From assembly GCA_038217285.1 (NCBI GenBank), contig JBBQPO010000169.1:1-13304 (forward strand): a stretch of 13,304 nt of DNA, read 5' to 3'. Below the pieces are notes generated by a model. That model saw only the letters and a program-made list of their open reading frames with translations. It did not search any database and was not told where the DNA came from. Below are positions 1-13,304 of the stretch, in pieces. Each line of letters opens with the position of its first letter. The stretch's first letter is position 1. Origin of the DNA: Chthonomonadales bacterium. Lineage in GTDB: Bacteria; Armatimonadota; Chthonomonadetes; Chthonomonadales; Chthonomonadaceae. The translations under genes were made by a program, and so were the position numbers.

Positions 1-224
1 CCGGCGGAAGGGCGACTGTCAAGAAATTTCATGCCATCTCCTGCTCCGGTTCCCATACTGTCGAACGGGCAGCAGACGACACAATTGCACTGATTTCCTG
101 GTGGCTTGTTCCCGCACTGTAGCAGGGCAGTAGAAGGAAGATAAAGAATCAGATGGCCTGCCAAACGCTGCGCCAGTCGCGCGGTGGCAGTAAGATTCTG
201 AACAGGCAATGATGCGAGCCTCAA
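1..224 (-). CDS. Continuation of the C39-domain protein in the -1 frame (or a coupled downstream gene starting at TTG 224); runs off the window; probable lead-in to an RHS/YD-repeat region
   Basis: Translated by hand; not in the ORF track. The frame is open from about 305 to the window edge: ...PKPQLRLASLPVQNLTATARLAQRLAGHLILYLPSTALLQCGNKPPGNQCNCVVCCPFDSMGTGAGDGMKFLDSRPSAG. TTG (224-222) overlaps the upstream TGA (223-221). A Cys-rich linker ending in PSAG resembles what precedes the DPVN motif of RHS proteins (inference; the motif itself would lie outside the window). Confidence 0.5.
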   Translation of the reverse strand, partial: MRLASLPVQNLTATARLAQRLAGHLILYLPSTALLQCGNKPPGNQCNCVVCCPFDSMGTGAGDGMKFLDSRPSA

Positions 225-1468
225 TTGGGGTTTTGGGGCACCTGTGCGATAGCAGGCGTTTTTGAAATCTGTCGCAGCGAAATTTGTAACGCCTGTGCGG
301 CCGAGCTACTGGGTAGACAGACGGCAAGGTACGGCCCGGCCTCCATCGCTTTCCATTGCTTCCAGGTCACCTTGCGCTCGCCTCCGGGCCACAGGCCGCA
401 GTCCGAGCACAGATAGGTAACGCCATGAACATCGGCATGCGTCAGCGCGACAAAGTGATCGTGCTCCACAAAAGCTACCAGCGGAGAATTGAGAGTCTGC
501 AATCCGATTGGGTCGGCCTGAAAGGCGATCGACGTGAGTTTGAGTTTGGTGGCGGCCTGTATAACGTCTGCGAGGCTGCTGCCTTCTCCCGTCACCCGGC
601 AGAGGGGACGCACGGCCTTTTTGTCATAGGGCAGATGCAGTCCGCGCAGACACGCGGCCAGGGCTTCGACGCCGCACAGAGGGTCCAGACGCAGGGGTTC
701 GGTGATCCCCATTTTCGAGCGCTCGGCGTGATAGCCCGCGCAGGCGGAAGCATGCCGCAGGAAGAGGGCGGTTTCGCGTCGGTCGACGCCGAGCAAGGAT
801 TTGTGTGAGGTGAGGAGCGTGTGCAGAGTTGCGGCTGACTGGGCATACTGTCCAGAGTAGAACAGTCCGAAACCTATGTCGCGCCGGGCAGTCATTATGA
901 CCGCTTCGGCAATTGCCTTCCCCCGTGCAGACTGCGCGTGCCTGCGCACGGCTCGGCTCTTCGCCACTTGCACCGCTCTTGCAAATTGAATGGCGGAAGT
1001 GAAGTGCGCGATGGCGTCCAGCGGCTCCTCGTCCTTTGCCAGTCTTGCTTCACCCAGCGACAGTTGCAGGCGAGCAGACTGAATAGCAGAGAGTTTGGGG
1101 TTCGCGCTCGGACGCAATCGGTTCTGCCACTGTGCGATCTGACCCTGGGCGAGACTGCCTTTGAGGTGCCCAATGTTGTCGAGAAGCGAAACGTTGTCTG
1201 TTACCAGGCGGTGTTTGGCAGCGGCCTGAAGTTTGTGCGCTTCCTGTGGGGAGAGGGGCCGCAAGTTCTCGCGTAGGGACTTCGGGGGCGGAATGGGATA
1301 ATGAATCGGGGAGACCGGCGGCCGGGAGAGCTTCGTACGGCTCACAGCGGCTTCGTCTGACAATACCCGCGAGGGTAGAGCCAACACAAATGTTCCGGCG
1401 AAACAGAGTGCGCTGAGACCGGCAATAAACCGAACCCGGCGGGGAGCATAACTGTTGTTCCTAGACAT
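221..1468 (-). CDS. Secreted protein with TPR-like helical region and peptidase C39 (cysteine peptidase) domain
   Basis: ATG at 1468 follows AGAAGGG. The N-terminus is a basic then hydrophobic signal peptide (RRVRFIAGLSALCFAGTFVLALP). TPR-like helices include ARRDIGFGLFYSGQYAQSAATL. C39 catalytic motifs are DPLCGVEAL (Cys), VEHDHFVAL (His) and YLCSD (Asp), plus the GSSLADVIQAA helix typical of C39. Confidence 0.8.
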   Translation of the reverse strand: MSRNNSYAPRRVRFIAGLSALCFAGTFVLALPSRVLSDEAAVSRTKLSRPPVSPIHYPIPPPKSLRENLRPLSPQEAHKLQAAAKHRLVTDNVSLLDNIGHLKGSLAQGQIAQWQNRLRPSANPKLSAIQSARLQLSLGEARLAKDEEPLDAIAHFTSAIQFARAVQVAKSRAVRRHAQSARGKAIAEAVIMTARRDIGFGLFYSGQYAQSAATLHTLLTSHKSLLGVDRRETALFLRHASACAGYHAERSKMGITEPLRLDPLCGVEALAACLRGLHLPYDKKAVRPLCRVTGEGSSLADVIQAATKLKLTSIAFQADPIGLQTLNSPLVAFVEHDHFVALTHADVHGVTYLCSDCGLWPGGERKVTWKQWKAMEAGPYLAVCLPSSSAAQALQISLRQISKTPAIAQVPQNPN

Positions 1469-1589
1469 AATCAACCCTTCTTCGGATCGTATGCAAAACA
1501 GTGAACACTCGATAAACTGCGCTCATTTTTCTGTGTTTATTCAGTTTTTCAAAAGATTGCGAAAATGTTGTCTACATACTTTGAATTCA

Positions 1590-2065: not shown

Positions 2066-3154
2066 ATGGCTCCGTCTCAGACACTGGAACAGGTGAGCAG
2101 TGGTCGGGAAAACAATCTCGATTTCCTGCGCTTTGCGCTGGCAACTCTCGTCGTGTTCTCCCATAGCTTCGCGTTGCCGGGCTACGCGGCCCTCGAACCG
2201 CTTCGCCGTCTCACCAGAGGGCAAATCGATGGCGGCTCGTTGGCCGTCGATTTCTTTTTTATCATCAGTGGATTTCTGGTCACACAGAGTTGGCAGCGCA
2301 GCAAGGGGGTGGGCGACTATCTCAAAAAGCGGGTGTTGCGTATCTATCCCGGCTTTCTTGTGACGGTGGCACTGTGTGGGCTGGTCGTGGGACCGTTGGG
2401 AGCCGACAGCTTTGCCGCCTACTGGCACACATTTCATCCGGTACGCTTTCTGTACAACACGGCCCAACTGCAGTTCGTGCTGCCGCCTGTGTTCACGCAT
2501 CTTGCCTATCACAGCGCCAACGGATCCCTGTGGACGATCCGCAATGAGTTTCTGTGCTATCTGATGGTGGCCGTCTTCGGCTTGCTGGGCCTGTATCGCT
2601 TTCGGATCGTCCTTCTGGGACTGTTCGGCGCGACGCTGTTGCTGTACATGCGCGAGGTCTATGGACATATCCCGTTCTGTCGCGGTATTGTCTTCCCCGT
2701 GATCGGGCAGTTGGATATGTGGCCTCGCTATCTGACGCAGTATCTGGCGGGCATGTGCTTCTATCTCTATCAGGATCGCATTCCTTATGCCCCGCGCTGG
2801 ATCGGGATAGGGGCGGTCATCGTGGCGACTGCATGCTTCCTGCCGGTGCTTGCGGCGGTGTTGCCGCTCTGCGGAGCGTACCTGCTGTTTGCCTTCGCGT
2901 TCCGTCGCAAGCCGGATTTGCACCATTTCGCGGAACGGGGCGATCTCTCCTACGGCATCTACCTCTATGCCTTTCCCATCCAGCAACTGCTTTTGTTGTT
3001 TGTCGCTCCACACATGGCTCCACTGCTGCTATTTGGGCTGGCGTTCCCGCTTACCGCGTTGGCGGCCTGGGCAAGCTGGCATCTCATAGAAAAACCCTGC
3101 CTACGCTTCAAAACCACGACAGCTCCGCAGCGTGTCGCTGTCGAGCAAAAGTGA
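2066..3154 (+). CDS. Acyltransferase family 3 (OafA/YrhL-like) integral membrane O-acyltransferase, no SGNH domain
   Basis: Motifs RENNLDFLRFALA-LVVFSH, GSLAVDFFFIISGFLVTQS, KRVLRIYPG, NGSLWTI-NEF-CY, GDLSYGIYLYAFPIQQ and SWHLIEKP; about 10 hydrophobic segments; 362 aa. Confidence 0.93.
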   Translation: MAPSQTLEQVSSGRENNLDFLRFALATLVVFSHSFALPGYAALEPLRRLTRGQIDGGSLAVDFFFIISGFLVTQSWQRSKGVGDYLKKRVLRIYPGFLVTVALCGLVVGPLGADSFAAYWHTFHPVRFLYNTAQLQFVLPPVFTHLAYHSANGSLWTIRNEFLCYLMVAVFGLLGLYRFRIVLLGLFGATLLLYMREVYGHIPFCRGIVFPVIGQLDMWPRYLTQYLAGMCFYLYQDRIPYAPRWIGIGAVIVATACFLPVLAAVLPLCGAYLLFAFAFRRKPDLHHFAERGDLSYGIYLYAFPIQQLLLLFVAPHMAPLLLFGLAFPLTALAAWASWHLIEKPCLRFKTTTAPQRVAVEQK

Positions 3155-3239: not shown

Positions 3240-3387
3240 CGTGAATCTTCTGGAGGGGCGCACACTCTGCTATAATGTTAGCGGGAGCCGCGCGCCTGGA
3301 AAGACGGCGCCTACAGCCACTGGGACTGCCCGTCAACCACGGGGGCCTGTCGTAAGGCGACTGCCCTCTCGGTGATGCGAACACCAA
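3240..3387 (+). repeat. Copy 1 of a diverged ~150-bp promoter/5' leader repeat (inverted copy at 8720-8869)
   Basis: Hand alignment of 3257-3354 to the reverse complement of 8851-8754 gives 80/98 identities with no gaps. Similarity continues on both sides with single-base gaps. Confidence 0.9.
3268..3276 (+). promoter_or_regulatory. Extended -10 promoter TGcTATAAT upstream of the beta-propeller/phosphoesterase gene
   Basis: Perfect TGnTATAAT; conserved as TGcTACAAT in the second repeat copy. Confidence 0.75.
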
Positions 3388-3434
3388 TCCATCAACTTTA
3401 CCAGCAAGAAGGACCATCCGTATTCGGAGTCGCT

Positions 3435-6038
3435 ATGAATCGTCTTGAATCGACAACGCCTCGGTCGCGCCGCGCCATCGGAAAACGCAGGATCCTGACT
3501 CTGTTCACGCTCTTGCTCGGTATCGCTGGGCTGGCCTATGCCCGAGACCAGAAGAGCGATCTCCACCTGGGCAAGCAGGCGGACGGCAGCTTCCTTGTCT
3601 CGACGGAACAGCGGATCGAACCGGGAGCGATCGCTTTCGACGGTCGCCCCATCGACATGGCCCTGCATCCGACGAAACTGCTTCTAGCGGTTCTGAACCA
3701 GCACAGCGTGCTACTGATCTCGCCGAAAGGCGTCGTGCCCGATTCCAGTGTATTCTTACGGCACGGGGCGGGATTTCGAGGCGCTCTCTGGTCACCGGAC
3801 GGCAGTCGGCTGTTCGTCAGTGAGGCAGACGGATGGGTCCAGGAACTGGACCTTCAGGGCACACAACTCGTGCTCGGGCCTACTCTCCCTGTGGCGCCGC
3901 CGGGAGCGAAGGGTAATCCACGTCCGGGCGGCATGGCCATCACCCAGAACGGCGCTCGCCTGTTCGTCGCGGTAGCCGACCGCAACGCCGTGGCCGAGAT
4001 CGATCTGGTCACGAATCTCTGGGTGCGCGAATATCCCGTTCAGAACCTGCCGTTCTCGGTGAAATTGAGCCAGGACGAAAAGACCCTGATCGCGACCAAC
4101 TGGGGCGGACGGGAGGTCACCGACGACGACGATCAGGCGGAGAGCGGCAGGGCCACGATCGTCGTGGACCCGCGAGGGGCCGCCGCCTCGGGAACGGTCT
4201 GCCTCATCCGACGCGACAGCGGGAAGACGAAATGCCTGAAGGTCGGGCTTCATCCCACCGCCATCGCGATCCAGGACGACCGCGCCTTCATCACGAACTC
4301 CGCGAGCGACAGTCTGACAGAGATCGATTTGACGGAGCGGAGAGTGGTGCGCACGATCCCACTTCACTGGGGCGCGATGCATCTTTTTGGCAGCATGCCC
4401 TGCGCGTTGGCAATTCGCGACGGGATCGCCTATGTCTGCAACGGCGGGGACAACGCCGTCTGCGAAGTAGACCTGACGGAAGGCCGTGTGCGTGGATTTC
4501 GACCTGCCGGCTACTTCCCAGTAGCCATAGCGCTAAGCAAAAACAGTCGCTTCGCGTTTGTGCTGAACACCAAGGGCAACGGCTCCGTCCGCCGAACGAG
4601 TATTGGTAAGCCAGGCAACGCACACGATTTTCAGGGGACCGTCTCTGTCGTGGATCTGTCGGTGGATCTGAAAGCCGCGACCGCAAAGGTCGCCGCCGAC
4701 AACGGCTGGAATCGGGATCGGAGCGCGCTGCATCCGCGTCTGGCGGTCTACCACGGCGCGATACAGCATGTGCTCTATATCATCAAAGAGAACCGAACCT
4801 ACGACGAAGTGTTCGGGGATCTACCCCAGGGCAACGGCGACCCGAAACTATGCCATCTCGGGGAGAAGTACACTCCCAACCATCATGCCATCGCCCGGCA
4901 GTTCACGCTGTTCGACAACGCCTATGTCGCCGGAACCAACAGCACCGATGGGCATCAATGGTGTACCCAGGCTATGGCGAACGACTATATAGAGCATTTT
5001 TATACCGGCTACCGGACCTATCCATTCGGGGGCGACTGCGCTATGGCGATCTCCAGCGGTGGGTGCCTGTGGGATGCGGCGCTGAAGAAGAAGCGGACAT
5101 TCCGGGACTATGGGGAGTTCTGCGACTCTCATCTGGCCTCTTTCACGCCGAGCGTGAACACCTGGCTGGAGGTCTGGAACGACCGGATGAGCGGCCGACA
5201 TGCCATCGAGCCTCGCTGCGGGACACGGATCGCCGGCCTCCGCCCCTATCTCTGTCGGCGGGTCGTGCAGTGGCCCCTGCTGCAGAGCGACCAGGCGCGT
5301 GCCGACGTCTTTATCGGGGAGTACGAAAAATTTAGCCAGTCGGATACGGTGCCGAATCTGATGATCCTCACCCTGCCCTGCGACCACACGGAAGGGCGCA
5401 ACCCGAACTATCCCAAGCCCCAGTCGATGATCGCGGACAACGATCTGGCCCTTGGGCGTGTTGTGGAGGCGGTATCGCGTAGTCCCCAGTGGAAGAACAC
5501 CTGTATATTTGTGATCGAAGACGATGCGCAGTTCGGCCTGGATCATGTGGATGGCCATCGGACCGTCTACTTCGCCCTCAGCCCCTACACACGCCGGAAA
5601 TATGTCGATCACGAGCTGGCCAATACGGTTTCGATGGTGCGCTCGATCGAGATGATGCTGGGACTCGACCCGATGAACCGCTTTGATGCGCTCACCCCTC
5701 CACTCGCCAACTGCTTCACGGACAGTCCGGATCTTTCGCCGTACACCACGGTTCCCAATAACGTTCCGCTGGATCAGATGAACCGTTCGCTCCGCCATCT
5801 GCACGGCAGTGCGCGCCTCTGGACGCAACGGTCGTTGGCGCTCGACTGGAGCGGGCTCGACCGCGCGGATCCGCAGAAGCTCAACGAGATCGTCAACTAT
5901 ACACTGCGCGACCAGGAGAGTGCGTACCTCGCGCGGGGAGGGGCTTCAAACGCCGGTCGTGAAAAGCCGGGACCGCTTACGCGCGGCGCGGCGCGGCAAG
6001 CCGGGTGTCGAGGGGTGCCGACCTTGCAGTGCCCGTAA
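3435..6038 (+). CDS. Secreted YVTN/YncE-type beta-propeller + phosphoesterase (alkaline phosphatase superfamily) bifunctional protein
   Basis: ATG 3435 follows GGAG (3426-3429). Signal peptide RRILTLFTLLLGIAGLAYA. Propeller repeats: WSPDGSRLFV, VGLHPTAIAI, AFITNSASDSLTEIDL, AYVCNGGDNAVCEVDL. Phosphoesterase motifs: HVLYIIKENRTYDEVFGD, STDGHQW, DHT, EDDAQ-G-DHVDGHR. Confidence 0.9.
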   Translation: MNRLESTTPRSRRAIGKRRILTLFTLLLGIAGLAYARDQKSDLHLGKQADGSFLVSTEQRIEPGAIAFDGRPIDMALHPTKLLLAVLNQHSVLLISPKGVVPDSSVFLRHGAGFRGALWSPDGSRLFVSEADGWVQELDLQGTQLVLGPTLPVAPPGAKGNPRPGGMAITQNGARLFVAVADRNAVAEIDLVTNLWVREYPVQNLPFSVKLSQDEKTLIATNWGGREVTDDDDQAESGRATIVVDPRGAAASGTVCLIRRDSGKTKCLKVGLHPTAIAIQDDRAFITNSASDSLTEIDLTERRVVRTIPLHWGAMHLFGSMPCALAIRDGIAYVCNGGDNAVCEVDLTEGRVRGFRPAGYFPVAIALSKNSRFAFVLNTKGNGSVRRTSIGKPGNAHDFQGTVSVVDLSVDLKAATAKVAADNGWNRDRSALHPRLAVYHGAIQHVLYIIKENRTYDEVFGDLPQGNGDPKLCHLGEKYTPNHHAIARQFTLFDNAYVAGTNSTDGHQWCTQAMANDYIEHFYTGYRTYPFGGDCAMAISSGGCLWDAALKKKRTFRDYGEFCDSHLASFTPSVNTWLEVWNDRMSGRHAIEPRCGTRIAGLRPYLCRRVVQWPLLQSDQARADVFIGEYEKFSQSDTVPNLMILTLPCDHTEGRNPNYPKPQSMIADNDLALGRVVEAVSRSPQWKNTCIFVIEDDAQFGLDHVDGHRTVYFALSPYTRRKYVDHELANTVSMVRSIEMMLGLDPMNRFDALTPPLANCFTDSPDLSPYTTVPNNVPLDQMNRSLRHLHGSARLWTQRSLALDWSGLDRADPQKLNEIVNYTLRDQESAYLARGGASNAGREKPGPLTRGAARQAGCRGVPTLQCP

Positions 6039-6147: not shown

Positions 6148-7848
6148 GTGCCGCCGCATTCTGATAAAAAGCGCAGGGTTCTTGCCATTCATCCCCTGTT
6201 CTTCGCGGCTTTTCCCCTTCTGGCGCTTTACGCACAGAACGTCGGCCAAATACCGTTCCATGAGGTCCTCCGGCCGCTCGGGATGGCGTTGCTGGGAACG
6301 ATGGCGGTCTGGCTCGTCTTCCTGCTGCTTACCCGACATGTGCGGAAGGCGGCTCTTGCCGCTTCCGTCGTCGTCCTTCTATTTTTTTCGTATGGGCATA
6401 TTGTTAACCTGCTGCCGCAGGGGCTCCAGAGCCTCGTTATGCCAGCCTCCGTCCTCGTACTGGCCGCTCTGCTTTTCATTATCTTGAGGGGACGGAAGCC
6501 TCTCTACGATGTGACGGCCGTCCTGAATCTGGTTGCTGTCGTTCTCCTCATTCCGTCCTGTTGGACCATCGTGAGCGGTCTCGACAGCAATGCACGGTCG
6601 CTGCACGAGGCTAAACATTCGGAACTCGATGAGTTCGTTCCGGGAGTTCGCGCCGTAGCGACGATCAATCGCCATCTCTCCGACGCCCCAAAAGATGTTC
6701 CGGATGTCTATTATATCATTCTGGACGCTTACGGCCGGGCGGATCGACTGCGCACGTATTACGGGTACGATAACACTCCCTTTATCGATGCTCTGAAGAA
6801 ACGCGGCTTCTATCTCCCCAGTCATAGCGAGCCAAACTATAATCAGACGCCTCTCTGTCTGTCAAGCGCCCTCAGCATGAACTACCTGGTGGATCGTCCC
6901 GGAAAACGCCTGAGCCCGGAAGTGGTACGGCAAATGGTAGATGACAATGCAGTGGCGGCTTGCCTACGCAAGCAGGGATATCACTACGTCGTCGTCTGGT
7001 CCGGACTGGAAGTATCGCGAGTCACAACGGCGGATCTGGTGTTCAACAACTCGCCCGATCTCTCGATCCTCGAAAGCGAGTGGATCAGCCGGACGCCGAT
7101 CGGCACGCTGGCTTCGCACCGGAAGGCCCGCTACAATCGGCACCGCCTCCGTATTCTCGGCGGTTTCAGCGGTCTGGAAGATGCGGCCAGTCTGCCCTAC
7201 CCGAAATTTGTCTTCACGCACATTCTGGCCCCGCATCCCCCTTTTGTCTTCGGCGCAAACGGGGAACCACACGATCCGGTAGGCACGCTGAATCTCTCGG
7301 ATGCGTCGGATCTACTCAAACTCATTACCAAGGACGAGTACCGCCGCGGTTACATCGCCCAACTCCAGTATGTCAACAAGCGTACCCTCGAAGCCATCGA
7401 CATGATCCTGCGAAAGTCCCGCCACCGACCGATCATCATCGTGCAGGGAGATCATGGTTCCCGCATGAGCCTGAACTGGGAGAGCCTGGCCCAGACAGAT
7501 TTACGGGAACCGTTTTCGAACCTCAATGCCTACTACGTACCCGATAAGGTGCGCCGTGATCTCTGGGACACGATCACTCCCGTCAACTCGTTCCGCGTCG
7601 TGCTCAACGATGTCTTCGGTGAGAAATATCCGCGTCTGCCGGATCGCAACTTCTACTCTACCGAGAGCCATCCCTTCGACTTTATAGAAGTGACCGATCA
7701 ACTCGCCCGAATAGCGAGTACGTCGGATCGGATGCACTCCGCCACTGGCGCGGGCGGGCAAAACGATGGAGAAGCACCTCCTAAGAGCACGCCAAGGCGT
7801 GTCGATTCGATCCGGTTTGGAGGGGCGTCGAATACGGGGGATCCCTAG
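6148..7848 (+). CDS. Membrane-anchored sulfatase-like / LtaS-EptA-like (alkaline phosphatase superfamily) transferase
   Basis: GTG 6148 follows GGAGG (6138-6142); the ORF-track start at 5809 overlaps the upstream gene. About five N-terminal TM helices precede PDVYYIILDAY, NYNQTPLCLSS (Thr at the nucleophile position; no CxPxR), FVFTHILAPHPPF and IIIVQGDHG. Confidence 0.85.
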   Translation: MPPHSDKKRRVLAIHPLFFAAFPLLALYAQNVGQIPFHEVLRPLGMALLGTMAVWLVFLLLTRHVRKAALAASVVVLLFFSYGHIVNLLPQGLQSLVMPASVLVLAALLFIILRGRKPLYDVTAVLNLVAVVLLIPSCWTIVSGLDSNARSLHEAKHSELDEFVPGVRAVATINRHLSDAPKDVPDVYYIILDAYGRADRLRTYYGYDNTPFIDALKKRGFYLPSHSEPNYNQTPLCLSSALSMNYLVDRPGKRLSPEVVRQMVDDNAVAACLRKQGYHYVVVWSGLEVSRVTTADLVFNNSPDLSILESEWISRTPIGTLASHRKARYNRHRLRILGGFSGLEDAASLPYPKFVFTHILAPHPPFVFGANGEPHDPVGTLNLSDASDLLKLITKDEYRRGYIAQLQYVNKRTLEAIDMILRKSRHRPIIIVQGDHGSRMSLNWESLAQTDLREPFSNLNAYYVPDKVRRDLWDTITPVNSFRVVLNDVFGEKYPRLPDRNFYSTESHPFDFIEVTDQLARIASTSDRMHSATGAGGQNDGEAPPKSTPRRVDSIRFGGASNTGDP

Positions 7849-8699
7849 GGTGAGTTTGCAGTGCGCTCCCAGTATGCCGCGTCGGAATCTATCCTGACGA
7901 GTTCGTCTGTAATGCCATGCTCCTGACGGTAGTCATCGACGGCCTGTCTGCAGGCGACCAGATGGTAATATTCGTCGATGATCGCATAACCACCCACCGA
8001 TAGCTTTGGATAGATGGACTTCAGACTGTCCATCGTGGACTCGTACATATCCCCGTCCAGCCGCATCACGGCAACCTGCTGCATGGGGGCGGTAGGCAGC
8101 GTGTCTTTGAACCAACCCTTGAGGAAACGCACCTGGTCGTCCAGCAGGTCATAGCGGGCAAAATTTGCCTGCACTTCTTCCAGCGAAACCATGAGATCCT
8201 TCCAGGTATGGTAAGGAATGTCGGCATCTAGCGGGTACTCCTTGTCGGGTGGGGGCAGACCAGCGAAGCTATCGGCCCCGTAGACGATGCGATCTCGCAC
8301 GCCGTAGGCTTTGAGGACGGCCCGCATCAGGATGATCCCTCCACCACGCCAGACACCCATCTCGATCAGGTCGCCCGGCACCTCGTTTCTCAACACCTGC
8401 TCGATACAGAACTGAATGTTGTCCAGACGCTGGATATTCAGCAGTGTCTGTGACATCACCGGCCAATCGTTGCCTTCCAGCCGTTTCGCAGGATCGAACT
8501 GTTTGGGGATGACGATCCGCATGTTGAACGCTTCCGCAGCCACTTTGATCAATTTCTTGACCGGATGCCTCGGCTCGATATAGATGACCTCCTTGTCCCC
8601 ATAGATCATATTAAGCAGGGAGCGTTTCATCAGATCCAGGTAGAGCGCACGCCCGTCGCCCGAATCCGTTGTAGAAGGCAGCCTATCAATCGTATTCAT
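7845..8699 (-). CDS. TylF/MycF/NovP-family SAM- and metal-dependent sugar O-methyltransferase
   Basis: ATG 8699 follows GGAG; the upstream 52 codons of the track ORF are the promoter/leader repeat. Motifs LYLDLMKRSL, VPGDLIEMGVWRGG, ADSFAGLP, GWFKDTLP, RLDGDMYEST and GGYAIIDEY. Confidence 0.92.
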   Translation of the reverse strand: MNTIDRLPSTTDSGDGRALYLDLMKRSLLNMIYGDKEVIYIEPRHPVKKLIKVAAEAFNMRIVIPKQFDPAKRLEGNDWPVMSQTLLNIQRLDNIQFCIEQVLRNEVPGDLIEMGVWRGGGIILMRAVLKAYGVRDRIVYGADSFAGLPPPDKEYPLDADIPYHTWKDLMVSLEEVQANFARYDLLDDQVRFLKGWFKDTLPTAPMQQVAVMRLDGDMYESTMDSLKSIYPKLSVGGYAIIDEYYHLVACRQAVDDYRQEHGITDELVRIDSDAAYWERTANSP

Positions 8700-8719: not shown

Positions 8720-8869
8720 TTGGGTTGCACATTACCGAAAGGGCGATCACTTGTAGGAAAGGCACTCGAGGTTGAGGGGCATTTTCAGCGGCTGTAGGCG
8801 CTACCTTTCCAGTCGTGCGGCTTCCGCTAACATTGTAGCAGAGTGCGCGCCACATTCAGAAGGTTTACG
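8720..8869 (-). repeat. Copy 2 of the diverged promoter/5' leader repeat, upstream of the TylF gene
   Basis: The reverse complement reads ...GGCGCGCACTCTGCTACAATGTTAGCGGAAGCCGCACGACTGGAAAGGTAGCGCCTACAGCC..., matching 3257 onward. It begins at the stop codon of the NoeA-like gene. Confidence 0.9.
8832..8840 (-). promoter_or_regulatory. Extended -10 promoter TGcTACAAT for the TylF gene
   Basis: TGnTACAAT on the minus strand, at the position homologous to TGcTATAAT at 3268-3276. Confidence 0.7.
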
Positions 8870-10259
8870 TTGGAGGATGGCCGCGCAGGAGGTAGAGCGT
8901 ACGTTCGCTGTCCGGTACGGGAATAGAGCGAACAATGTCGAAGCAGCGGCAGAAGGCCGTCTCGAAGCCGGATACGGTGTAGTCCGTAAAAATATCTTCC
9001 CGACTGGCGAGGAGACGCTGCACCTGGGAGTCGCTTTTGGGAACGAACTCGATGATCAGCCACTCCCCAAGGCTCCGAAAGAACCGCGCGACGTTGTCGA
9101 GGGGAACGTTGTTGGCGATCGCCAGATGATGGATCAGCGCGAGCGCCAGCAGCAGGTCGGCAGGCCCTCGGGCGCTTAGAGAGCGGCGCTCCCGGAGCGC
9201 CCAGCCCAGGTCCGGACTCGGGTTGGTGAGATCCCCCAGAAGAGGCAACAGATGTTTCTCTCCGTTCGCCCGACCCTCCAGATAGTTCTTCTCGACGGCC
9301 GCTGGATCGATATCCATGGAGACCGTCTGTATGCCACGACCACTGGCGACCCGACTGAACAGGCCCGTGTTCGCGCCGAGATCCCACGCGGTTTTGGGCG
9401 CAGGAACAACGGTGTCCAGTAGTTCGGCCACCAGTCGGCGCTTGCCGCCCATGGCCTCATCGGAGTAGTTTGTCTCGGTGTAGTATTCCGCCCAGGTGGT
9501 GCCGGAAGGCTTCCATGTCTGACTCCGAACGGCGCCCTCCAGGCTGTCGATCAGACCCAGTAAGGCGGTGCGGCTCATACCGCCCGACCCTCCGGAACGG
9601 CGTACCGCCTCACCCTCGTAGCGTTTCTGCGCCGCGCCGTGCAGATGAATATGTGTCAGCAGTCCGACCTGGAGCCAGGTGCTGCGTGGCAGCAGGCGAC
9701 TGGCCAGGTCCAGCGGAATACCATCTATGTGGACGCGCAACAACTGCTGCAGGCGCACGTCAGTCCGGCTCATGAGGGCCAGCGGCGCCAGGAAATGCTG
9801 GCAGAACTGTTTGTAGGCCGTCCAGGGGCTGCCTTCTTCTACCTTTTCAAAAGAGAGCGTATCGATCAGCGTCGGCTTGCCGTCGCGGAACTGGATGTTG
9901 TAGGCGCTCGCGTCCTTGAGCGTCATCCCGAATCGAAGCGCTTCCTTCTGAATCTGCAGGGTCGCGTGGGCGGCGTCTTTGAGCTGACTGAAACACCATT
10001 CATAGGGATACGAGATAAAGGGAACCCGTTCCGGTCGGAGGATGCGGTAGGCGTCCGGAGTAAGCCGACTCTCGACGCTCTCCTCGATATGGGAGATCAT
10101 CAGGCCCGACTCTACCAGCGCCTGATAGAGTCCGGACCCGGTGAGAAGATCATACTCTTCCTTATAGCTGCGCTGCACCTGACGTAAAAGCGTCTCTTCA
10201 CGATAGAAGATGAACCCGCTGGGATCCCGGAAAGAGCCCGGGTCTACCGACAGGCTCAT
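8865..10259 (-). CDS. NoeA-like protein: kinase-like N-terminal domain + C-terminal class I SAM-dependent methyltransferase
   Basis: Family motifs GSFRDPSG, FISYPYEWCFSQLKDAA, LKDASAYNIQF, LIDTLSFE, QFCQHFLAPL; SAM motif I WDLGANTG; LALALIHHLAI; IIEFVPKSD. The ATG overlaps the upstream TGA (ATGA, 10256-10259). Confidence 0.88.
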   Translation of the reverse strand: MSLSVDPGSFRDPSGFIFYREETLLRQVQRSYKEEYDLLTGSGLYQALVESGLMISHIEESVESRLTPDAYRILRPERVPFISYPYEWCFSQLKDAAHATLQIQKEALRFGMTLKDASAYNIQFRDGKPTLIDTLSFEKVEEGSPWTAYKQFCQHFLAPLALMSRTDVRLQQLLRVHIDGIPLDLASRLLPRSTWLQVGLLTHIHLHGAAQKRYEGEAVRRSGGSGGMSRTALLGLIDSLEGAVRSQTWKPSGTTWAEYYTETNYSDEAMGGKRRLVAELLDTVVPAPKTAWDLGANTGLFSRVASGRGIQTVSMDIDPAAVEKNYLEGRANGEKHLLPLLGDLTNPSPDLGWALRERRSLSARGPADLLLALALIHHLAIANNVPLDNVARFFRSLGEWLIIEFVPKSDSQVQRLLASREDIFTDYTVSGFETAFCRCFDIVRSIPVPDSERTLYLLRGHPPT

Positions 10260-10492
10260 TCTTCGCCGCGCTTTTCCATCCCGATTTTGCCCGCAAACAT
10301 TTTCGCCGTGGAAGCCTTGAGGCGCTGCCAGGAGAGTTTTATCGTGAAGGCCAGGCCGAGAAGCCCTGCCATCAACATTTGCAGCACGTAGCTGCCGCTG
10401 CCCGCGTCGATATAGGCGTGTGCCGGTGCGACGGTTCCGATCAATACGGCTGCAATTACTAGATATACCATGTTACTTGTACTCCTCGTCAT
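10256..10492 (-). CDS. Small membrane protein of the 'AY(I/L)DPG(T/S)GS' type (signal peptide + one TM helix + basic tail)
   Basis: VYLVIAAVLIGTVAPAHA|YIDAGSGSYVLQMLMAGLLGLAFTIKLSWQRLK: an AxA signal-peptidase site directly before the motif, then a TM helix and a basic tail. An alternative start is ATG 10471, which has GAGGAG 10 nt upstream. It is coupled to the NoeA-like gene by an ATGA overlap. Confidence 0.85.
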   Translation of the reverse strand: MTRSTSNMVYLVIAAVLIGTVAPAHAYIDAGSGSYVLQMLMAGLLGLAFTIKLSWQRLKASTAKMFAGKIGMEKRGEE

Positions 10493-10737
10493 TAGGATAG
10501 ACGTACCACGCATAGCAAGAGTTCATCAACAGCGCGAACGAAGCCAGGAAACATTTCACGGAACTTCTGCATGTCGTACCGGATTGACGCGAATGCATGG
10601 CAGTCGTTACGGCGGCTTTCGCGCGGTTTGAGGGAACGTCGCCGTTTCCCCGGCTCTTTTGCGGAGCGTCGCACCGCGAATTTGACCGTCGCCGCTCCGT
10701 CTGCGGTACTATATTGTGTCAGGGAAGGAGTCGGAGG

Positions 10738-11424: not shown

Positions 11425-13304
11425 ATGCAAGAGAACGAACAACCAACGGAGTCCACGCTGCAGACTCCTGCAGCCGCCGTGACGATACAGATTCCCGACT
11501 TCGCGGTGGTGGTGCTGATCGGTGTGAGCGGCAGCGGCAAGTCCACCTTTGCCCGTAAGCATTTTCTGCCGTCCGAATGCCTCTCCTCGGATGCGTTTCG
11601 GGGAATGGTCAGCGACGACGAGAACGATCAGAGCGCGACCAACGACGCTTTCGAGGCGCTGCACTATATGGCGGAGATGCGCCTGCGTCGGCGCAGGATC
11701 GTCGTGATCGATGCGACGAATGTGCAGGAGGCGGCCCGAAAGCCGCTGGTCGAGCTGGCGCATCGCAACGACGTGCTGGCCGTCGCGATCGTCCTGAACG
11801 TGCCGGAGCGAACCTGCCAGGATCGCAATCGGGATCGCCCCGACCGGCAGTTCGGGCCGCATGTCGTCGGCAATCAGAGCCGTCAGTTGCGCCAGTCTTT
11901 CCCAAACCTGCGTCGCGAAGGCTTTCGGTACATCTTCAAGTTCAATGAGGCGGAGATCGCGAATGTCGGTATCGAGCGCGTGCCGCTCTGGACGGATCGC
12001 CGCAAGGAGGCCGGGCCGTTCGACATCATCGGCGACGTTCACGGCTGCGGTGACGAACTGAGGGCCCTGTTGACGCAGCTCGGGTATGCCGAGCAGGAGG
12101 GCGCGTGGAGGCATGCGGAGGGGCGGCGCGCCGTGTTCGTGGGGGATCTGGTGGATCGAGGCCCGAAGGTGGTGGAGACCGTGCGCCTGGTGCGGAGCAT
12201 GATGTGGGCGGGCGCGGCCCTCTGCGTCCCAGGCAACCACGATACGAAACTGAGCAGGGCCTTGAAGGGCAATCCTGTGGCGAAGACGCACGGACTGATG
12301 GAGAGCCTCGCCCAGATCGAAGCCCTGCCGGAAGAGGAGCGGAATGCGTTCACGCAGGACTATCTCCGCTTCGCGGAGGATCTGGTGTCGCATCTCTGGC
12401 TGGACGGCGGCGCGCTCTGTGTGGCCCATGCCGGAATGAAAGAGGGTTACATGGGGCGGGCGTCGGGGCGTGTACGCGACTTCGCGCTGTATGGCGAGAC
12501 GACGGGCGAGACGGACGAGTTCGGCCTGCCGGTTCGCTATCCCTGGGCCCAGGACTACCGGGGGAAGACCTCGGTGGTCTATGGGCATACGCCGGTGCCG
12601 GAGGCCGAGTGGCTGAATAACACGATCAATCTCGACACCGGCTGCGTCTTCGGCGGCAAACTCACCGCGCTGCGATGGCCCGAGCGCGAACTGGTGCAGA
12701 TTCCGGCGGCGCGGACCTACGCGGAACCCGTGCGCCCATTCCTGCCCGTCGCTGCGGAACCCGAGTCGGTGGAGACGTCGGACGTCTCGCTGCAGTGGCA
12801 GCACGACGAGCTGCTGCGCGCGGAGGATGTGCTGGGCAAGCGGATCGTGACGACTCGCCTGATGCCGAGTGTGATCATCCCGGCCGAGAACGCGGCGGCG
12901 GCGCTCGAAGTGATGAGTCGCTTCGCGGTCGAACCGCGCTGGCTGCTCTATCTGCCGCCCACGATGTCGCCTTGTGAGACGGCTCCGGCAGGCGAACTGC
13001 TGGAACAGCCTGCGGAGGCGTTCGCCTACTTCCGAAATGTGGGAGTCACGGAGGTCGTCTGCCAGCGCAAGCATATGGGCAGCCGTGCAGTCGTCGTGAT
13101 CTGTCGCGATGCCGAGGCCGCCCGGCAGCGGTTCGGCGCGACGACAGGCGAGATCGGGCAGTGCGTCACCCGCACCGGGCGTCGGTTCTTCGACGATGCT
13201 ACGCTGCATCACGGGCTTCTGGAGGAGTTTGGCGCCGCTCTGGAGCGCGCGGGCTTCTGGGAGGAGTTCGGAACCGACTGGGCCTGTTTCGACTGCGAGC
13301 TTAT
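11425..13304 (+). CDS. pnkp: Bacterial polynucleotide kinase-phosphatase-ligase (Pnkp, RNA repair), truncated by the window end
   Basis: Translated by hand; absent from the ORF track because there is no stop in the window. ATG 11425 follows GGGAG. P-loop LIGVSGSGKSTFARKHF, then SSD-FRGMVSDDENDQSAT and IDATNVQ. Metallophosphoesterase motifs IIGDVHGC, FVGDLVDRGP, PGNHD, VAHAG, YGHTP, LDTGCVFGG. Ligase region ALEVMSRFAV, YLPPTMSP, KHMGSRAV. Confidence 0.96.
   Translation, partial: MQENEQPTESTLQTPAAAVTIQIPDFAVVVLIGVSGSGKSTFARKHFLPSECLSSDAFRGMVSDDENDQSATNDAFEALHYMAEMRLRRRRIVVIDATNVQEAARKPLVELAHRNDVLAVAIVLNVPERTCQDRNRDRPDRQFGPHVVGNQSRQLRQSFPNLRREGFRYIFKFNEAEIANVGIERVPLWTDRRKEAGPFDIIGDVHGCGDELRALLTQLGYAEQEGAWRHAEGRRAVFVGDLVDRGPKVVETVRLVRSMMWAGAALCVPGNHDTKLSRALKGNPVAKTHGLMESLAQIEALPEEERNAFTQDYLRFAEDLVSHLWLDGGALCVAHAGMKEGYMGRASGRVRDFALYGETTGETDEFGLPVRYPWAQDYRGKTSVVYGHTPVPEAEWLNNTINLDTGCVFGGKLTALRWPERELVQIPAARTYAEPVRPFLPVAAEPESVETSDVSLQWQHDELLRAEDVLGKRIVTTRLMPSVIIPAENAAAALEVMSRFAVEPRWLLYLPPTMSPCETAPAGELLEQPAEAFAYFRNVGVTEVVCQRKHMGSRAVVVICRDAEAARQRFGATTGEIGQCVTRTGRRFFDDATLHHGLLEEFGAALERAGFWEEFGTDWACFDCEL

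Follow-up and report, generated by a model that had tools for sequence, protein, structure and literature searches.

A widespread, unnamed membrane microprotein encoded with NoeA- and NoeB-like enzymes, and its possible role as an anchor in surface-glycan phospho-decoration

A 13,304-nt stretch of bacterial DNA (hereafter the window) was found to carry a genuine gene for a conserved membrane microprotein of 71 residues, which belongs to a very widespread and unnamed family and whose gene is the first of a conserved cassette running from microprotein to NoeA to NoeB. With a confidence that falls slightly short of even, we propose that this microprotein anchors the NoeA/NoeB enzyme set at the membrane for the phospho-decoration of a surface glycan. 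The relevant features of the window are:

10256..10471, minus strand: microprotein gene, 71 aa plus stop (coding part 10259-10471), identified by homology, hydropathy and charge
10482..10487, minus strand: ribosome-binding site GAGGAG, 10 nt before ATG 10471, read from the sequence
10256..10259, minus strand: ATGA stop/start overlap between the microprotein gene (TGA 10256-10258) and the NoeA-like gene (ATG 10259-10257)
8865..10259, minus strand: NoeA-like protein, 464 aa, identified by homology to Sinorhizobium meliloti NoeA and by structure models
7845..8699, minus strand: TylF/MycF-like sugar O-methyltransferase, 284 aa (ATG 8699; PF05711, E 1e-99; MycF 4xvz, E 1e-78)
6148..7848, plus strand: NoeB-like membrane transferase, 566 aa, identified by family HMM, hydropathy and Pfam
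3372..6038, plus strand: protein combining a beta-propeller with a PF04185 phosphoesterase, immediately upstream of the NoeB-like gene (context only)
2066..3154, plus strand: Acyltransferase_3 (OafA-type) membrane acyltransferase (context only)

The microprotein gene lies within an enclosing ORF at 10256-10513(-), in which an earlier sequence-only reading had seen a protein of 71-78 residues translationally coupled to the NoeA-like gene. Both the gene and its ATGA coupling were confirmed. As to the length, the start that fits the relatives is ATG 10471, giving 71 aa, and 26 of the 30 aligned homologues start at this position. The alternative start, ATG 10492 (78 aa), is unlikely; it would put the GAGGAG site inside the reading frame, a point in favour of the 71-aa start. 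In the resulting protein, a hydrophobic leader ending in AHA (residues 1-19) is followed by YIDAGSGS (residues 20-27), a transmembrane (TM) helix (~28-46), a basic juxtamembrane stretch (K..W.RLK, residues 45-52) and a variable tail.

Searches with the window peptide matched 62 proteins of ~71 aa (E<=0.01), and PAHAYID.GSGSY, Q31, K45 and W48 were invariant among 30 aligned homologues. An exhaustive profile search extended the family to 7657 representatives of clusters at 50% identity at E<=1e-3, and to 773 at E<=1e-10. Y20, D22, G26, S27 and Q31 were invariant among 99 diverse members, and the family as a whole is marked by the motif Y-[ILV]-D-[PA]-G-[ST]-G-S, one TM helix and a basic flank with K..W, at a length of ~60-110 aa; the 71-aa window protein agrees with this pattern throughout. 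No Pfam or NCBIfam model was found for the family, and no description of the motif was found in the literature searched. The earlier remark that this copy has Ala where Pro is usual proved accurate, since motif position 4 is Pro in 111 and Ala in 11 of 126 motif-bearing remote representatives, with Ala characterizing the window's own subfamily (28/30). Small size and the lack of a Pfam or NCBIfam model would also be expected of a chance ORF in an untranslated leader region of the NoeA gene. However, protein-level conservation over many phyla with invariant residues and kept length, the presence of a ribosome-binding site, and the annotation of RefSeq/GenBank plasmid copies as hypothetical proteins all speak against this explanation, whose probability we consider negligible, and it was rejected on the 62 matching ~71-aa proteins, the invariant residues and the 7657 cluster representatives.

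Charge signals support an N-out/C-in topology that would have the motif face the outside of the membrane: its net charge was -1 in 207/207 sequences, and past the TM helix the flanking residues averaged +3.6, being at least +2 in 98.6%. This agrees with the extracytoplasmic motif proposed in the sequence-only reading, which had also taken AHA for a signal-peptidase site. The -3/-1 rule fits that proposal, as residue -1 is A, S or G in 210/210 sequences and residue -3 is A, V, S or G in 208/210. Also in line with cleavage, the uncharged stretch before the Tyr has a median length of 17 residues when the c-region is included, rather few for a TM helix, and leaderless fused forms exist that begin 5-6 residues before the Tyr (P0239, P0243, P0233 and P0237). 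Taken together, these signals suggest that the leader is probably removed after AHA.

A different topology would arise if the leader were kept, giving an uncleaved hairpin of two helices in which AHAY.DPG.GS forms a tight turn on the outer face; such a variant would fit an anchor role or a partnership with NoeB alike. D-P-G and G-S are turn-forming sequences, P0165 consists of two modules in tandem, so that its second leader would be an internal helix, and P0224 goes on from the module to another TM helix and a beta-lactamase-like domain on the outside. Further, the rows of the PMC9758233 supplement available to us list five homologues of Legionella Lani_1193 as 'NO_SP' by SignalP 6.0 (Sec/SPI probability 0.08-0.36), with a cleavage site at 18-19 in two rows. 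If Lani_1193 homologues belong to the microprotein family, these calls argue against cleavage; the Y-x-D-P/A-G-S/T-G-S family is probably the Lani_1193 family, an assignment based on protein size, with ranges 1-63 and 6-65 matched, on position and on the weak predicted cleavage site. Against the hairpin stand the AxA rule, obeyed in 208/210 and 210/210 sequences, the shortness of the uncharged stretch, and the natural leaderless variants that begin just before the Tyr, and we regard it as unlikely while giving it real weight.

The product of the second gene aligned with S. meliloti NoeA at 36.3-36.5% identity over 97% coverage (E 9e-62). Structure modeling (pLDDT 90.9 for the whole protein and 92.2 for the N-domain) revealed a protein-kinase-like fold in the N-terminal domain (~1-215) and, together with sequence motifs, a class I SAM methyltransferase in the C-terminal domain (~270-460). 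Only kinase-fold chains appeared among the matches listed for the N-domain model (ranks 1-50, similar chains collapsed), with a best PDB E of 6.6e-5 and TMq 0.36-0.51, and this domain had no sequence-level match in PDB or Pfam. The best PDB match of the whole-protein model was the kinase-methyltransferase WbdD (4azs, E 5e-8), and many methyltransferases also matched at E ~1e-7; the Pfam Methyltransf_23 match (E 0.002) lies below the cut-off. Among 45 NoeA-like sequences, R26, D116, N121 and D133 were invariant, which keeps the kinase-type catalytic D116-x4-N121 and the metal-binding-type D133 that follows it, and D293xGxNxG, D318 and D343 were invariant in the methyltransferase domain. Homology and both fold matches thus uphold the earlier identification of a NoeA-like kinase/methyltransferase; no report of kinase or methyltransferase activity for any NoeA family member was found in the literature searched.

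The gene at 6148-7848(+) is NoeB-like, as a family HMM built from its product and relatives finds S. meliloti NoeB on pSymA (E 2.5e-31). It has a GTG start with GGAGG upstream, and is convergent with the microprotein operon, from which it lies one gene away. Five N-terminal hydrophobic segments occur within residues 10-147, followed by an outer alkaline-phosphatase (AP)/sulfatase-superfamily domain; D193 is invariant in the family, T234, the putative nucleophile, is ~96% conserved, and H358, H363 and D435 are conserved. It is this protein that the sequence-only reading described as a nearby membrane transferase with a Thr nucleophile. The Pfam Sulfatase match (PF00884) is marginal at E 1.3e-5, its 25.1 bits lying just above the cut-off of 25, and in the PDB the family profile reached soluble sulfatases only (best E 2e-5), with no EptA or LtaS chain at E<=0.1. 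Homologues are annotated as 'sulfatase-like hydrolase/transferase' or, in one case, 'LTA synthase family protein', and HHpred and Phyre2 tie the Legionella protein Lani_1195 to EptA and MCR-1 according to PMC9758233.

Conserved linkage was evaluated in 80 peptide-centred loci from many phyla. In 71 of them the next same-strand gene downstream is NoeA-like, and a NoeB-like gene is present in 64 and directly follows NoeA in 50, which substantiates the recurrence of such peptides next to NoeA-like and sulfatase/phosphodiesterase-like genes that the sequence-only reading had put forward. The SFRDP motif of NoeA begins 7-41 nt past the peptide stop in 61 of 67 cassettes, indicating that near-zero gene spacing is the rule. 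Eight of the 16 loci without a NoeB-like gene are too short downstream to judge, and about eight fully flanked loci carry the peptide and NoeA with no NoeB nearby. At three loci the peptide adjoins NoeB with no NoeA, NoeB standing directly after it in L018 and L064 and directly before it in L031. Adjacency of the peptide to NoeA was also found in 5/5 NoeA-carrying plasmid lineages examined, pSymA among them. The locus closest to the window is L001 from Chthonomonadaceae, at 75% identity.

The wider gene content was also inspected. The TylF/MycF-like gene is the third of the minus-strand operon, 165 nt after NoeA, where NoeB usually stands, and is not a recurrent neighbour, occurring in one other locus among the 80. 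The beta-propeller/PF04185 protein has a signal-peptide-like N-terminus as read from its sequence, and its family was found in 4/80 loci by HMM and in four loci including the window by blastp clustering (with L001 as the representative); the Acyltransferase_3 gene was not recurrent in the 80 loci. The commonest other neighbours in 81 loci were glycosyltransferases (12 and 10), ABC ATPases (8) and epimerases (6), while Wzy_C/GT4, GDP-mannose genes and a phosphonate pathway (CyTase-Ppm, Ppd and Fe-ADH) occur beside NoeA-less or plasmid copies. This context, including the glycosyltransferases, the MycF-like methyltransferase and the phosphonate-pathway genes, points to an envelope glycan modified with a phosphate-containing group, as the sequence-only reading had supposed for a surface polymer.

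The module also occurs within 93 longer proteins. In 77 of these it forms the N-terminus ahead of a TagF-like (CDP-glycerol glycerophosphotransferase) catalytic domain, and in five the domain that follows it is NoeA-like. The fused partner is thus a cytoplasmic enzyme in 82/93, and is NoeB-like in none. The motif Tyr, Asp, Gly and Ser are invariant in the 77 fused forms, and the fused enzymes use cytoplasmic substrates (CDP-glycerol, ATP and SAM). In L031, the standalone peptide and an unfused TagF-like enzyme are encoded in one operon, the enzyme belonging to the same subfamily as the fused ones (E 3e-96). The five peptide-NoeA fusions all come from metagenome assemblies, and given the ATGA overlap a single-base error could create them; one, P0136, looks frameshifted further on. 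Fusion to cytoplasmic TagF-like and NoeA-like enzymes, and never to NoeB, argues for a module that, oriented N-out/C-in, serves phospho-group enzymes of the cytoplasm as anchor or adaptor.

In the mechanism that we propose, a short Sec-type leader would probably be cut after AHA, leaving a type-I-like membrane microprotein: its mature N-terminus, Y-I-D-A-G-S-G-S, would lie at the outer face of the cytoplasmic membrane, a single helix would span the membrane, and a basic tail of ~25 residues would stay in the cytoplasm. The microprotein would then serve NoeA, a soluble kinase-methyltransferase, as its membrane anchor or adaptor, holding it at the inner membrane face, where lipid-linked glycans are built, and in other lineages the same module would serve as the fused N-terminal anchor of TagF-like phospho-alcohol transferases. 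By analogy with WbdD, in which kinase and then methyltransferase act on the end of a glycan, and with EptA/LtaS-type enzymes, which use a Thr nucleophile to transfer a phospho-alcohol at the outer face, the cassette may decorate an envelope glycan or glycolipid with a substituent that contains phosphate. Linkage, near-zero stop/start spacing, the fusions as Rosetta-stone signals and the predicted topology favour this anchor role. Nevertheless, the most conserved part of the microprotein is the eight-residue motif on the outer face, which anchoring alone leaves unexplained, conservation is poor in the cytoplasmic tail, by which NoeA would be held, and a leader plus a stop-transfer helix is elaborate for a simple anchor. 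The peptide-NoeA fusions could moreover be metagenome artefacts, and three loci pair the peptide with NoeB in place of NoeA.

The sequence-only reading had cast the peptide as a covalent carrier, acceptor or assembly subunit in a relay. Fusions and linkage favour the assembly subunit, whereas a DltX-like covalent carrier or acceptor was not supported. In such a relay, the motif Tyr, Ser or Thr would transiently carry a phospho or methyl-phospho group from the Thr-metal site of NoeB to a surface polymer. Invariance of the motif Tyr, Asp, Gly and Ser in both the 99 diverse members and the 77 fused forms would suit this, as would a conserved cleavage site that would free an N-terminal Tyr and the location of the motif on the same side of the membrane as the NoeB catalytic domain. 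The same membrane placement would suit a microprotein that binds the membrane or outer domain of NoeB as a small subunit, lid or inhibitor, its adjacency to NoeA then reflecting a shared operon only. This second possibility also draws on L018, L064 and L031, and on the presence of NoeB in 64/80 loci, half of the 16 lacking loci being too short downstream to judge. The fusions weigh against both, as none of the 93 long forms has a NoeB-like partner. Against the relay, the fused partners are cytoplasmic enzymes in 82/93, with active site and motif on opposite sides of the membrane; against the binding of NoeB, the TagF-like fusions point to a module that also serves enzymes besides NoeB. A partner or regulator of NoeB is further at odds with the tight stop/start coupling, which is with NoeA and not with NoeB, and with the opposite strand of NoeB in the window, and we think it rather unlikely. 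The relay is in addition hard to reconcile with the ~8 fully flanked loci that have the peptide and NoeA with no NoeB nearby, with a cassette that lacks a DltB-like polytopic channel enzyme, and with the known EptA/LtaS-type enzymes, which take the group directly from a lipid donor. Its model, DltX, offers a microprotein Tyr that acts as an acyl shuttle in a motif either free or fused, but that motif, FXYXXF, is unlike the present one and C-terminal, not N-terminal (available text of PMC12148441). We consider the relay improbable.

A broader proposal would make the module an undescribed and nearly universal bacterial trans-membrane coupling device, whose tail or fusion holds a cytoplasmic phospho-group enzyme (NoeA or TagF-like) while the processed N-terminal Tyr/Asp/Ser motif at the outer face joins NoeB-type chemistry as phospho/methyl-phospho acceptor or as part of the active site. 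We view this as a long shot. Were it true, one microprotein would join the inner steps of glycan phospho-decoration to the outer ones, and would be the missing third part of the 30-year-old noeA/noeB host-range system.

As host-range genes of alfalfa symbionts, NoeA and NoeB have a genetic record going back to 1995; their homologues occur in well over a thousand species, and no biochemical function was reported for them in the literature searched. Nearly always they are encoded together with a third component that has been overlooked, the classical Sinorhizobium operon included, and mutant and reconstitution studies of NoeA/NoeB without the microprotein may have been incomplete. TagF-like fusions and the phosphonate cluster tie the module to the placement of phosphate or phosphonate on cell-surface glycans. 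A small conserved neighbour of NoeA homologues was already on record in PMC9758233; the fit to the -3/-1 signal-peptidase rule is new.

Several known systems share parts of this architecture. In WbdD the methyltransferase domain comes first, and that enzyme is not known to have a microprotein or NoeB partner; the domain order is therefore reversed in NoeA, whose kinase-like domain leads and which lacks a coiled-coil or membrane-binding C-terminus. The match of WbdD to the NoeA-like model covers ~219 columns with TMq 0.32, and the likeness lies in two activities joined in one polypeptide at the inner membrane face, which on the NoeA side is predicted. WbdD of E. coli O9a has two functions, kinase and methyltransferase, and caps the O-antigen with a methyl phosphate group, as described in the consulted part of PMC3482155. 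The NoeB-like protein resembles EptA, MCR-1 and LtaS in its five predicted N-terminal TM segments, putative outer AP-superfamily domain, and conserved Thr with putative Asp/His ligands; it differs in that its family profile reaches only soluble sulfatases of the PDB by sequence. Classical TagF binds the membrane peripherally and has no TM anchor. A catalytic domain of the TagF/TagB family (PF04464) is carried by 77 of the 93 long module proteins and by one unfused enzyme sharing an operon with the peptide, whereas the window has no PF04464-type gene.

Two small membrane proteins deserve comparison. BcsF is a single-pass inner-membrane peptide whose tail recruits cytosolic BcsE without contacting BcsG directly (consulted part of PMC11470070), and its operon likewise pairs a peptide with a cytosolic protein and an AP-superfamily phospho-alcohol transferase, BcsG, which by analogy would be a precedent for an anchor. 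For a tail that would recruit a soluble partner in this way, the fusions of the present module give indirect support. The likeness is one of architecture: BcsF has neither a leader nor a conserved outer-face motif, and BcsE senses c-di-GMP and is no kinase-methyltransferase. Another membrane microprotein, DltX, likewise presents a short motif with an invariant Tyr on the outer face, free or fused depending on the pathway (available text of PMC12148441), yet its FXYXXF lies near the extracellular C-terminus, whereas YIDAGSGS would stand at the mature N-terminus, and DltX fuses to a membrane channel enzyme whereas the present module fuses to cytoplasmic ones. Neither MBOAT (DltB) nor SGNH (DltD) partner genes were found among the scanned window proteins or the recurrent neighbours.

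The closest counterparts are found in Legionella and Sinorhizobium. In the accessible portions of PMC9758233, the Legionella pan-kinome presents NoeA homologues as proteins that join an atypical kinase to a methyltransferase, reports the small hypothetical Lani_1193 in 65% and the NoeB/EptA-like Lani_1195 in 38% of 816 NoeA-homologue neighbourhoods, and places the O-antigen acetylase Lani_1192 beside the trio in Legionella anisa; those portions of the 2022 report give no motif, topology, family size or fusions for Lani_1193. All four gene kinds of Lani_1192-1195 are present in the window. The nodL-noeA-noeB genes form a host-range operon of S. meliloti (Ardourel et al., 1995, via PMC9758233, PMC10945364 and PMC9048898), and the consulted parts of the same three sources term the biochemistry of rhizobial NoeA/NoeB 'hypothesized'. 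The window differs in having no nodL, in the TylF-like gene that follows NoeA, and in its convergent NoeB on the other strand, and since its host is probably an Armatimonadota relative, Nod factors would not be the target. Yet NoeA (97% coverage) and NoeB (HMM E 2.5e-31) are homologous in the two, and the same microprotein ORF lies between nodL and noeA on Sinorhizobium pSymA (L081:3715-3963, HMM E 2e-17), where it overlaps the noeA start as in the window; in S. medicae and Rhizobium plasmids it is annotated 'hypothetical protein'. The window cassette is the same cassette as the Sinorhizobium nodL-orf-noeA-noeB.

The cassette studied here comprises the genes of a 71-aa membrane peptide, a NoeA-like protein (kinase-like plus methyltransferase) and a NoeB-like membrane transferase of the alkaline-phosphatase (AP) superfamily, and its surroundings in the window are as follows.

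Genes of the window (forward-strand positions)
221-1474, minus strand: 417-aa protein with a C39-peptidase-like domain (E 2e-8) and an N-terminal hydrophobic segment
2066-3154, plus strand: Acyltransferase_3 protein, converging on the minus-strand operon
3372-6038, plus strand: 888-aa beta-propeller plus PF04185 phosphoesterase protein, converging on the operon
6148-7848, plus strand: 566-aa NoeB-like membrane protein, GTG start with GGAGG upstream, converging on the operon
7845-8699, minus strand: TylF/MycF-like sugar O-methyltransferase (MycF/NovP-like; PF05711 E 1e-99, MycF E 1e-78), third operon gene
8865-10259, minus strand: NoeA-like gene, 464 codons, second operon gene, its ATG overlapping the peptide TGA as ATGA
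10259-10471 plus stop, minus strand: 71-codon peptide ORF, first gene of the three-gene operon, with GAGGAG 10 nt 5′ of the start
11425-13302, plus strand: Pnkp, a bacterial polynucleotide kinase-phosphatase (RNA-repair gene; TIGR04075 E 5e-280), truncated by the window end

The NoeA-like and methyltransferase genes are separated by 165 nt, and the stop codons of the methyltransferase and NoeB-like genes overlap at 7845-7848. The PF04185 domain encoded at 3372-6038 (+) is of the phospholipase C/acid phosphatase type behind a likely signal peptide. A family HMM detected homologues of this protein in four of the 80 loci retrieved, one of them L001, a peptide-centred locus, and the protein could supply or strip phospho-head groups. 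The flanking genes (an FMN_bind_2 protein, Pnkp and the C39-like protein) look unrelated to the cassette. Between the C39-like and acyltransferase genes the GC content dips to 0.46 at 1501-2000 (0.55-0.68 elsewhere). An Rfam scan of the window returned zero RNA families, and promoter and terminator scanning around the operon gave no convincing signal.

The peptide is a real gene product. It consists of a hydrophobic leader ending in P-A-H-A, the motif Y-I-D-A-G-S-G-S-Y, a hydrophobic helix, the K..W.RLK segment and a tail of variable sequence. Of the 62 related proteins retrieved by a word-indexed search, nearly all have 71 aa, and in the 30 that were aligned PAHAYID.GSGSY, Q31, K45 and W48 were invariant. 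When a profile was run against 1.84 billion cluster representatives, 7657 matched at E≤1e-3 and 773 at E≤1e-10, with lengths mostly of 60-110 aa among the best 150 of the 7657, and the strict motif pattern was present in 126 of the 149 remote representatives listed. The fourth motif position is Ala in 28/30 close relatives; of the 126 motif-bearing representatives, 111 have Pro there and 11 have Ala, so the remark of the sequence-only reading that this copy has Ala where Pro is usual was correct. Across a family-wide alignment of 99 sequences, Y20, D22, G26, S27 and Q31 were invariant. Pfam holds no model matching the peptide or three further family members scanned, NCBIfam has none covering the peptide, PADLOC yielded nothing relevant (one weak match to a methyltransferase region, E 7e-4), and the ESM Atlas contained only unnamed ‘hypothetical protein’ clusters.

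To tabulate gene neighbours, GTDB species-representative genomes were scanned once with the family alignment, by which at least 601 matches to the pattern AY[IL]D[PA]G[ST]GS[YFL] were obtained, 435 were confirmed and the best 80, ranked by similarity to the window peptide, were retained; divergent members and their contexts fall outside this sample. Neighbours were counted by ORF calling and iterated HMMs seeded from the window proteins. Record titles of the 80 loci span Chthonomonadaceae/Armatimonadota (the closest, 75% identity), Chloroflexota, Desulfobacterales, Acidobacteriota, Patescibacteria groups, Planctomycetota, Gammaproteobacteria, Bacteroidetes, Clostridia and others. A NoeA-like gene is present in 72/80 loci, in 71 of them directly downstream of the peptide on the same strand, and a NoeB-like gene in 64/80; both occur together in 60/80. 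The linkage put forward in the sequence-only reading is borne out by these counts. Contig ends truncate two of the eight loci without NoeA, and eight of the 16 without NoeB have <1.8 kb of downstream sequence. Since the conserved SFRDP motif of NoeA begins 7-41 nt past the peptide stop in 61 of 67 cassettes, overlap of the two genes is the norm. NoeB directly follows NoeA in 50/80 loci; in the window this slot is held by the sugar O-methyltransferase and NoeB is convergent on the opposite strand, a gene order that is a variant of the common arrangement. Further neighbours are weakly recurrent polysaccharide-type genes, namely GT2 (12), GT4 (10), ABC ATPase (8) and NAD epimerase (6) among 81 loci, with no additional conserved neighbour in more than 12, and neither the TylF-like nor the Acyltransferase_3 gene of the window is a recurrent neighbour in the 80 loci. 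In two Chloroflexota loci (L013:3308-3827 and L016:4371-4890) NoeA appears as two short fragments of 72 and 121 aa, alongside an intact peptide and one or two intact NoeB paralogues. At L029:1701-2441, 4.5 kb 5′ of a normal cassette, a leader precedes a degenerate D-F-D-S-G-T-G-S-Y-V-L-Q stretch and there is no TM helix; this possible second module was rejected as a secreted-type dual-specificity phosphatase with a degenerate motif only.

The NoeA-like proteins are unusually conserved: across phyla they share 46-84% identity with the protein encoded in the window. The full-length model (pLDDT 90.9) matched WbdD best in the PDB (E 5e-8), followed by many class I methyltransferases, and the N-terminal 220 residues modelled separately (pLDDT 92.2) retrieved, among the matches listed, solely kinase-fold chains (PAK, ROCK1, RNase L, GAK, ASK1, CK2, Rio2 and CDC7; best E 6.6e-5, TMq 0.36-0.51). 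By sequence, a PDB search with the whole protein gave one methyltransferase match only (E 0.3), and the N-domain profile had no match in PDB or Pfam. R26, D116-x4-N121 and D133 are invariant, in agreement with the description in PMC9758233. The NoeB-like protein has five hydrophobic segments within its first 150 residues, a marginal Pfam Sulfatase match and conserved D193, T234, H358, H363 and D435; as a single sequence it had no PDB match, and its profile matched soluble sulfatases only (E 2e-5). The earlier label ‘LtaS-like’ is a fair one for the architecture, with LtaS proper no more than a possible assignment.

The window NoeA-like protein is 36% identical to S. meliloti NoeA over 97% of its length. 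On pSymA of S. meliloti 1021, a family ORF (L081:3715-3963, HMM E 2e-17) overlaps the noeA start and noeB comes next; the classical nodL-noeA-noeB operon has a fourth gene, of 71 codons, between nodL and noeA, as also found in the plasmid loci L086:2248-2463 and L083:3751-3966. This ORF is annotated ‘hypothetical protein’ in plasmids of S. medicae and Rhizobium sp. T136. The peptide likewise lies beside NoeA in Singulisphaera, Novosphingobium (with GDP-mannose genes adjoining) and a deltaproteobacterial plasmid, and adjoins it in all five plasmid lineages examined. Direct tblastn of plasmids with the peptide gave just three weak matches (E 0.1), each slightly 5′ of a NoeA gene. According to PMC9758233, NoeA homologues combine an atypical kinase with a methyltransferase, and of 816 neighbourhoods surveyed there, 65% contain a gene for a small hypothetical protein (Lani_1193) and 38% a NoeB/EptA-like gene. 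The gene cluster that the window cassette joins is therefore already in print, but the nature of the small protein is not. Lani_1193 likely belongs to the peptide family. A full-text search with the motif string found no relevant paper, and in this searchable literature, whose coverage leaves subscription journals aside, the definition and size of the microprotein family, its conserved signal-peptidase site, its place inside the classical nodL-noeA-noeB operon and the reuse of the module as the N-terminus of a TagF-like enzyme appear undescribed.

All 210 sequences have A, S or G immediately before Tyr (−1), and 208 of the 210 have A, V, S or G at −3. Small residues at −3 and −1 are the rule for signal peptidase I. 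The uncharged stretch ahead of Tyr, c-region counted, has a median of 17 residues, which is more typical of a signal peptide than of a transmembrane helix. Because the motif carries a net charge of −1 in 207/207 sequences and the 16 residues past the helix a mean charge of +3.6 (≥+2 in 98.6%), the positive-inside rule predicts that the motif lies outside and the tail inside. The leader is probably cleaved. Arguing against cleavage are SignalP 6.0 ‘NO_SP’ calls for five Lani_1193 homologues (Sec/SPI probability 0.08-0.36) in the PMC9758233 supplement, where two rows of homologues carry a cleavage site at 18-19, and two proteins that would be odd with a cleaved leader: P0165 (161 aa), with two modules in tandem, and P0224 (373 aa), in which the module is followed by a second TM helix and by an outer domain resembling beta-lactamases or transpeptidases.

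Decisive new evidence on the role of the peptide came from a survey of fused forms. A single-sequence search found no longer forms, and only a profile search limited to longer proteins recovered them: 93 contain the module. It is N-terminal to a TagF-like CDP-glycerol glycerophosphotransferase domain (PF04464 on most) in 77 of these and to a NoeA-like domain in five, which misassembly at the ATGA overlap may have created; the remaining 11 are mostly doubtful ORFs, and a NoeB-like domain is joined to the module in none of the 93. The fused forms keep AHA-Y-L-D-P-G-T-G-S: 97% have A at −1, and Y, D, P and the two G are invariant (100%). Some fused forms are leaderless, beginning 5-6 residues ahead of Tyr. 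The TagF-like fusions (P0225, P0228, P0231 and 74 others) are of ~420-450 aa and show a leader, AHA-YLDPGTGS and a TM helix. Searching plasmids with one such protein gave no match.

Loci without NoeA show other partners. The Pseudomaricurvus alkylphenolicus operon (L031:5186-12040) encodes a NoeB-like protein, the peptide, a cytidylyltransferase-PEP mutase fusion, phosphonopyruvate decarboxylase, Fe-ADH and, as a free-standing protein, a TagF-like enzyme of the same subfamily that is fused elsewhere (E 3e-96). Its gene content indicates a putative phosphonate surface-decoration cluster of the type discussed in PMC6697681, and it looks like a candidate hydroxyethyl- or aminoethyl-phosphonate glycan-decoration cluster sharing the same microprotein. 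In L080 the peptide is followed by an NTP-transferase/PEP-utilising enzyme and a large sulfatase-like protein, and in L018 by NoeB, a Wzy_C protein and GT4. Common to these arrangements would be a cytoplasmic enzyme for activated phosphate or phosphonate groups, with the module as its membrane attachment.

The best-supported reading, from sequence and gene context, is that the peptide serves as an N-out/C-in anchor or adaptor for NoeA. By analogy with WbdD, phosphorylation and methylation would occur at the inner membrane face, and, by analogy with EptA/LtaS-type enzymes, a phospho-alcohol would be transferred onto an envelope glycan at the outer face. The poorly conserved tail counts against an anchor, and anchoring does not account for why the outer-face motif is so strictly kept. 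We consider the sequence-only proposal of a DltX-type covalent relay at the peptide improbable, as the DltX features given in PMC12148441 are not found here and the fusion partners lie on the wrong side of the membrane; in its favour, invariant Tyr, Asp and Ser stand at a probably processed N-terminus facing the NoeB domain. For the anchor or adaptor, the closest solved analogue is BcsF, a single-pass peptide co-encoded with the AP-superfamily transferase BcsG, whose tail, according to PMC11470070, recruits the cytosolic BcsE without contacting BcsG.
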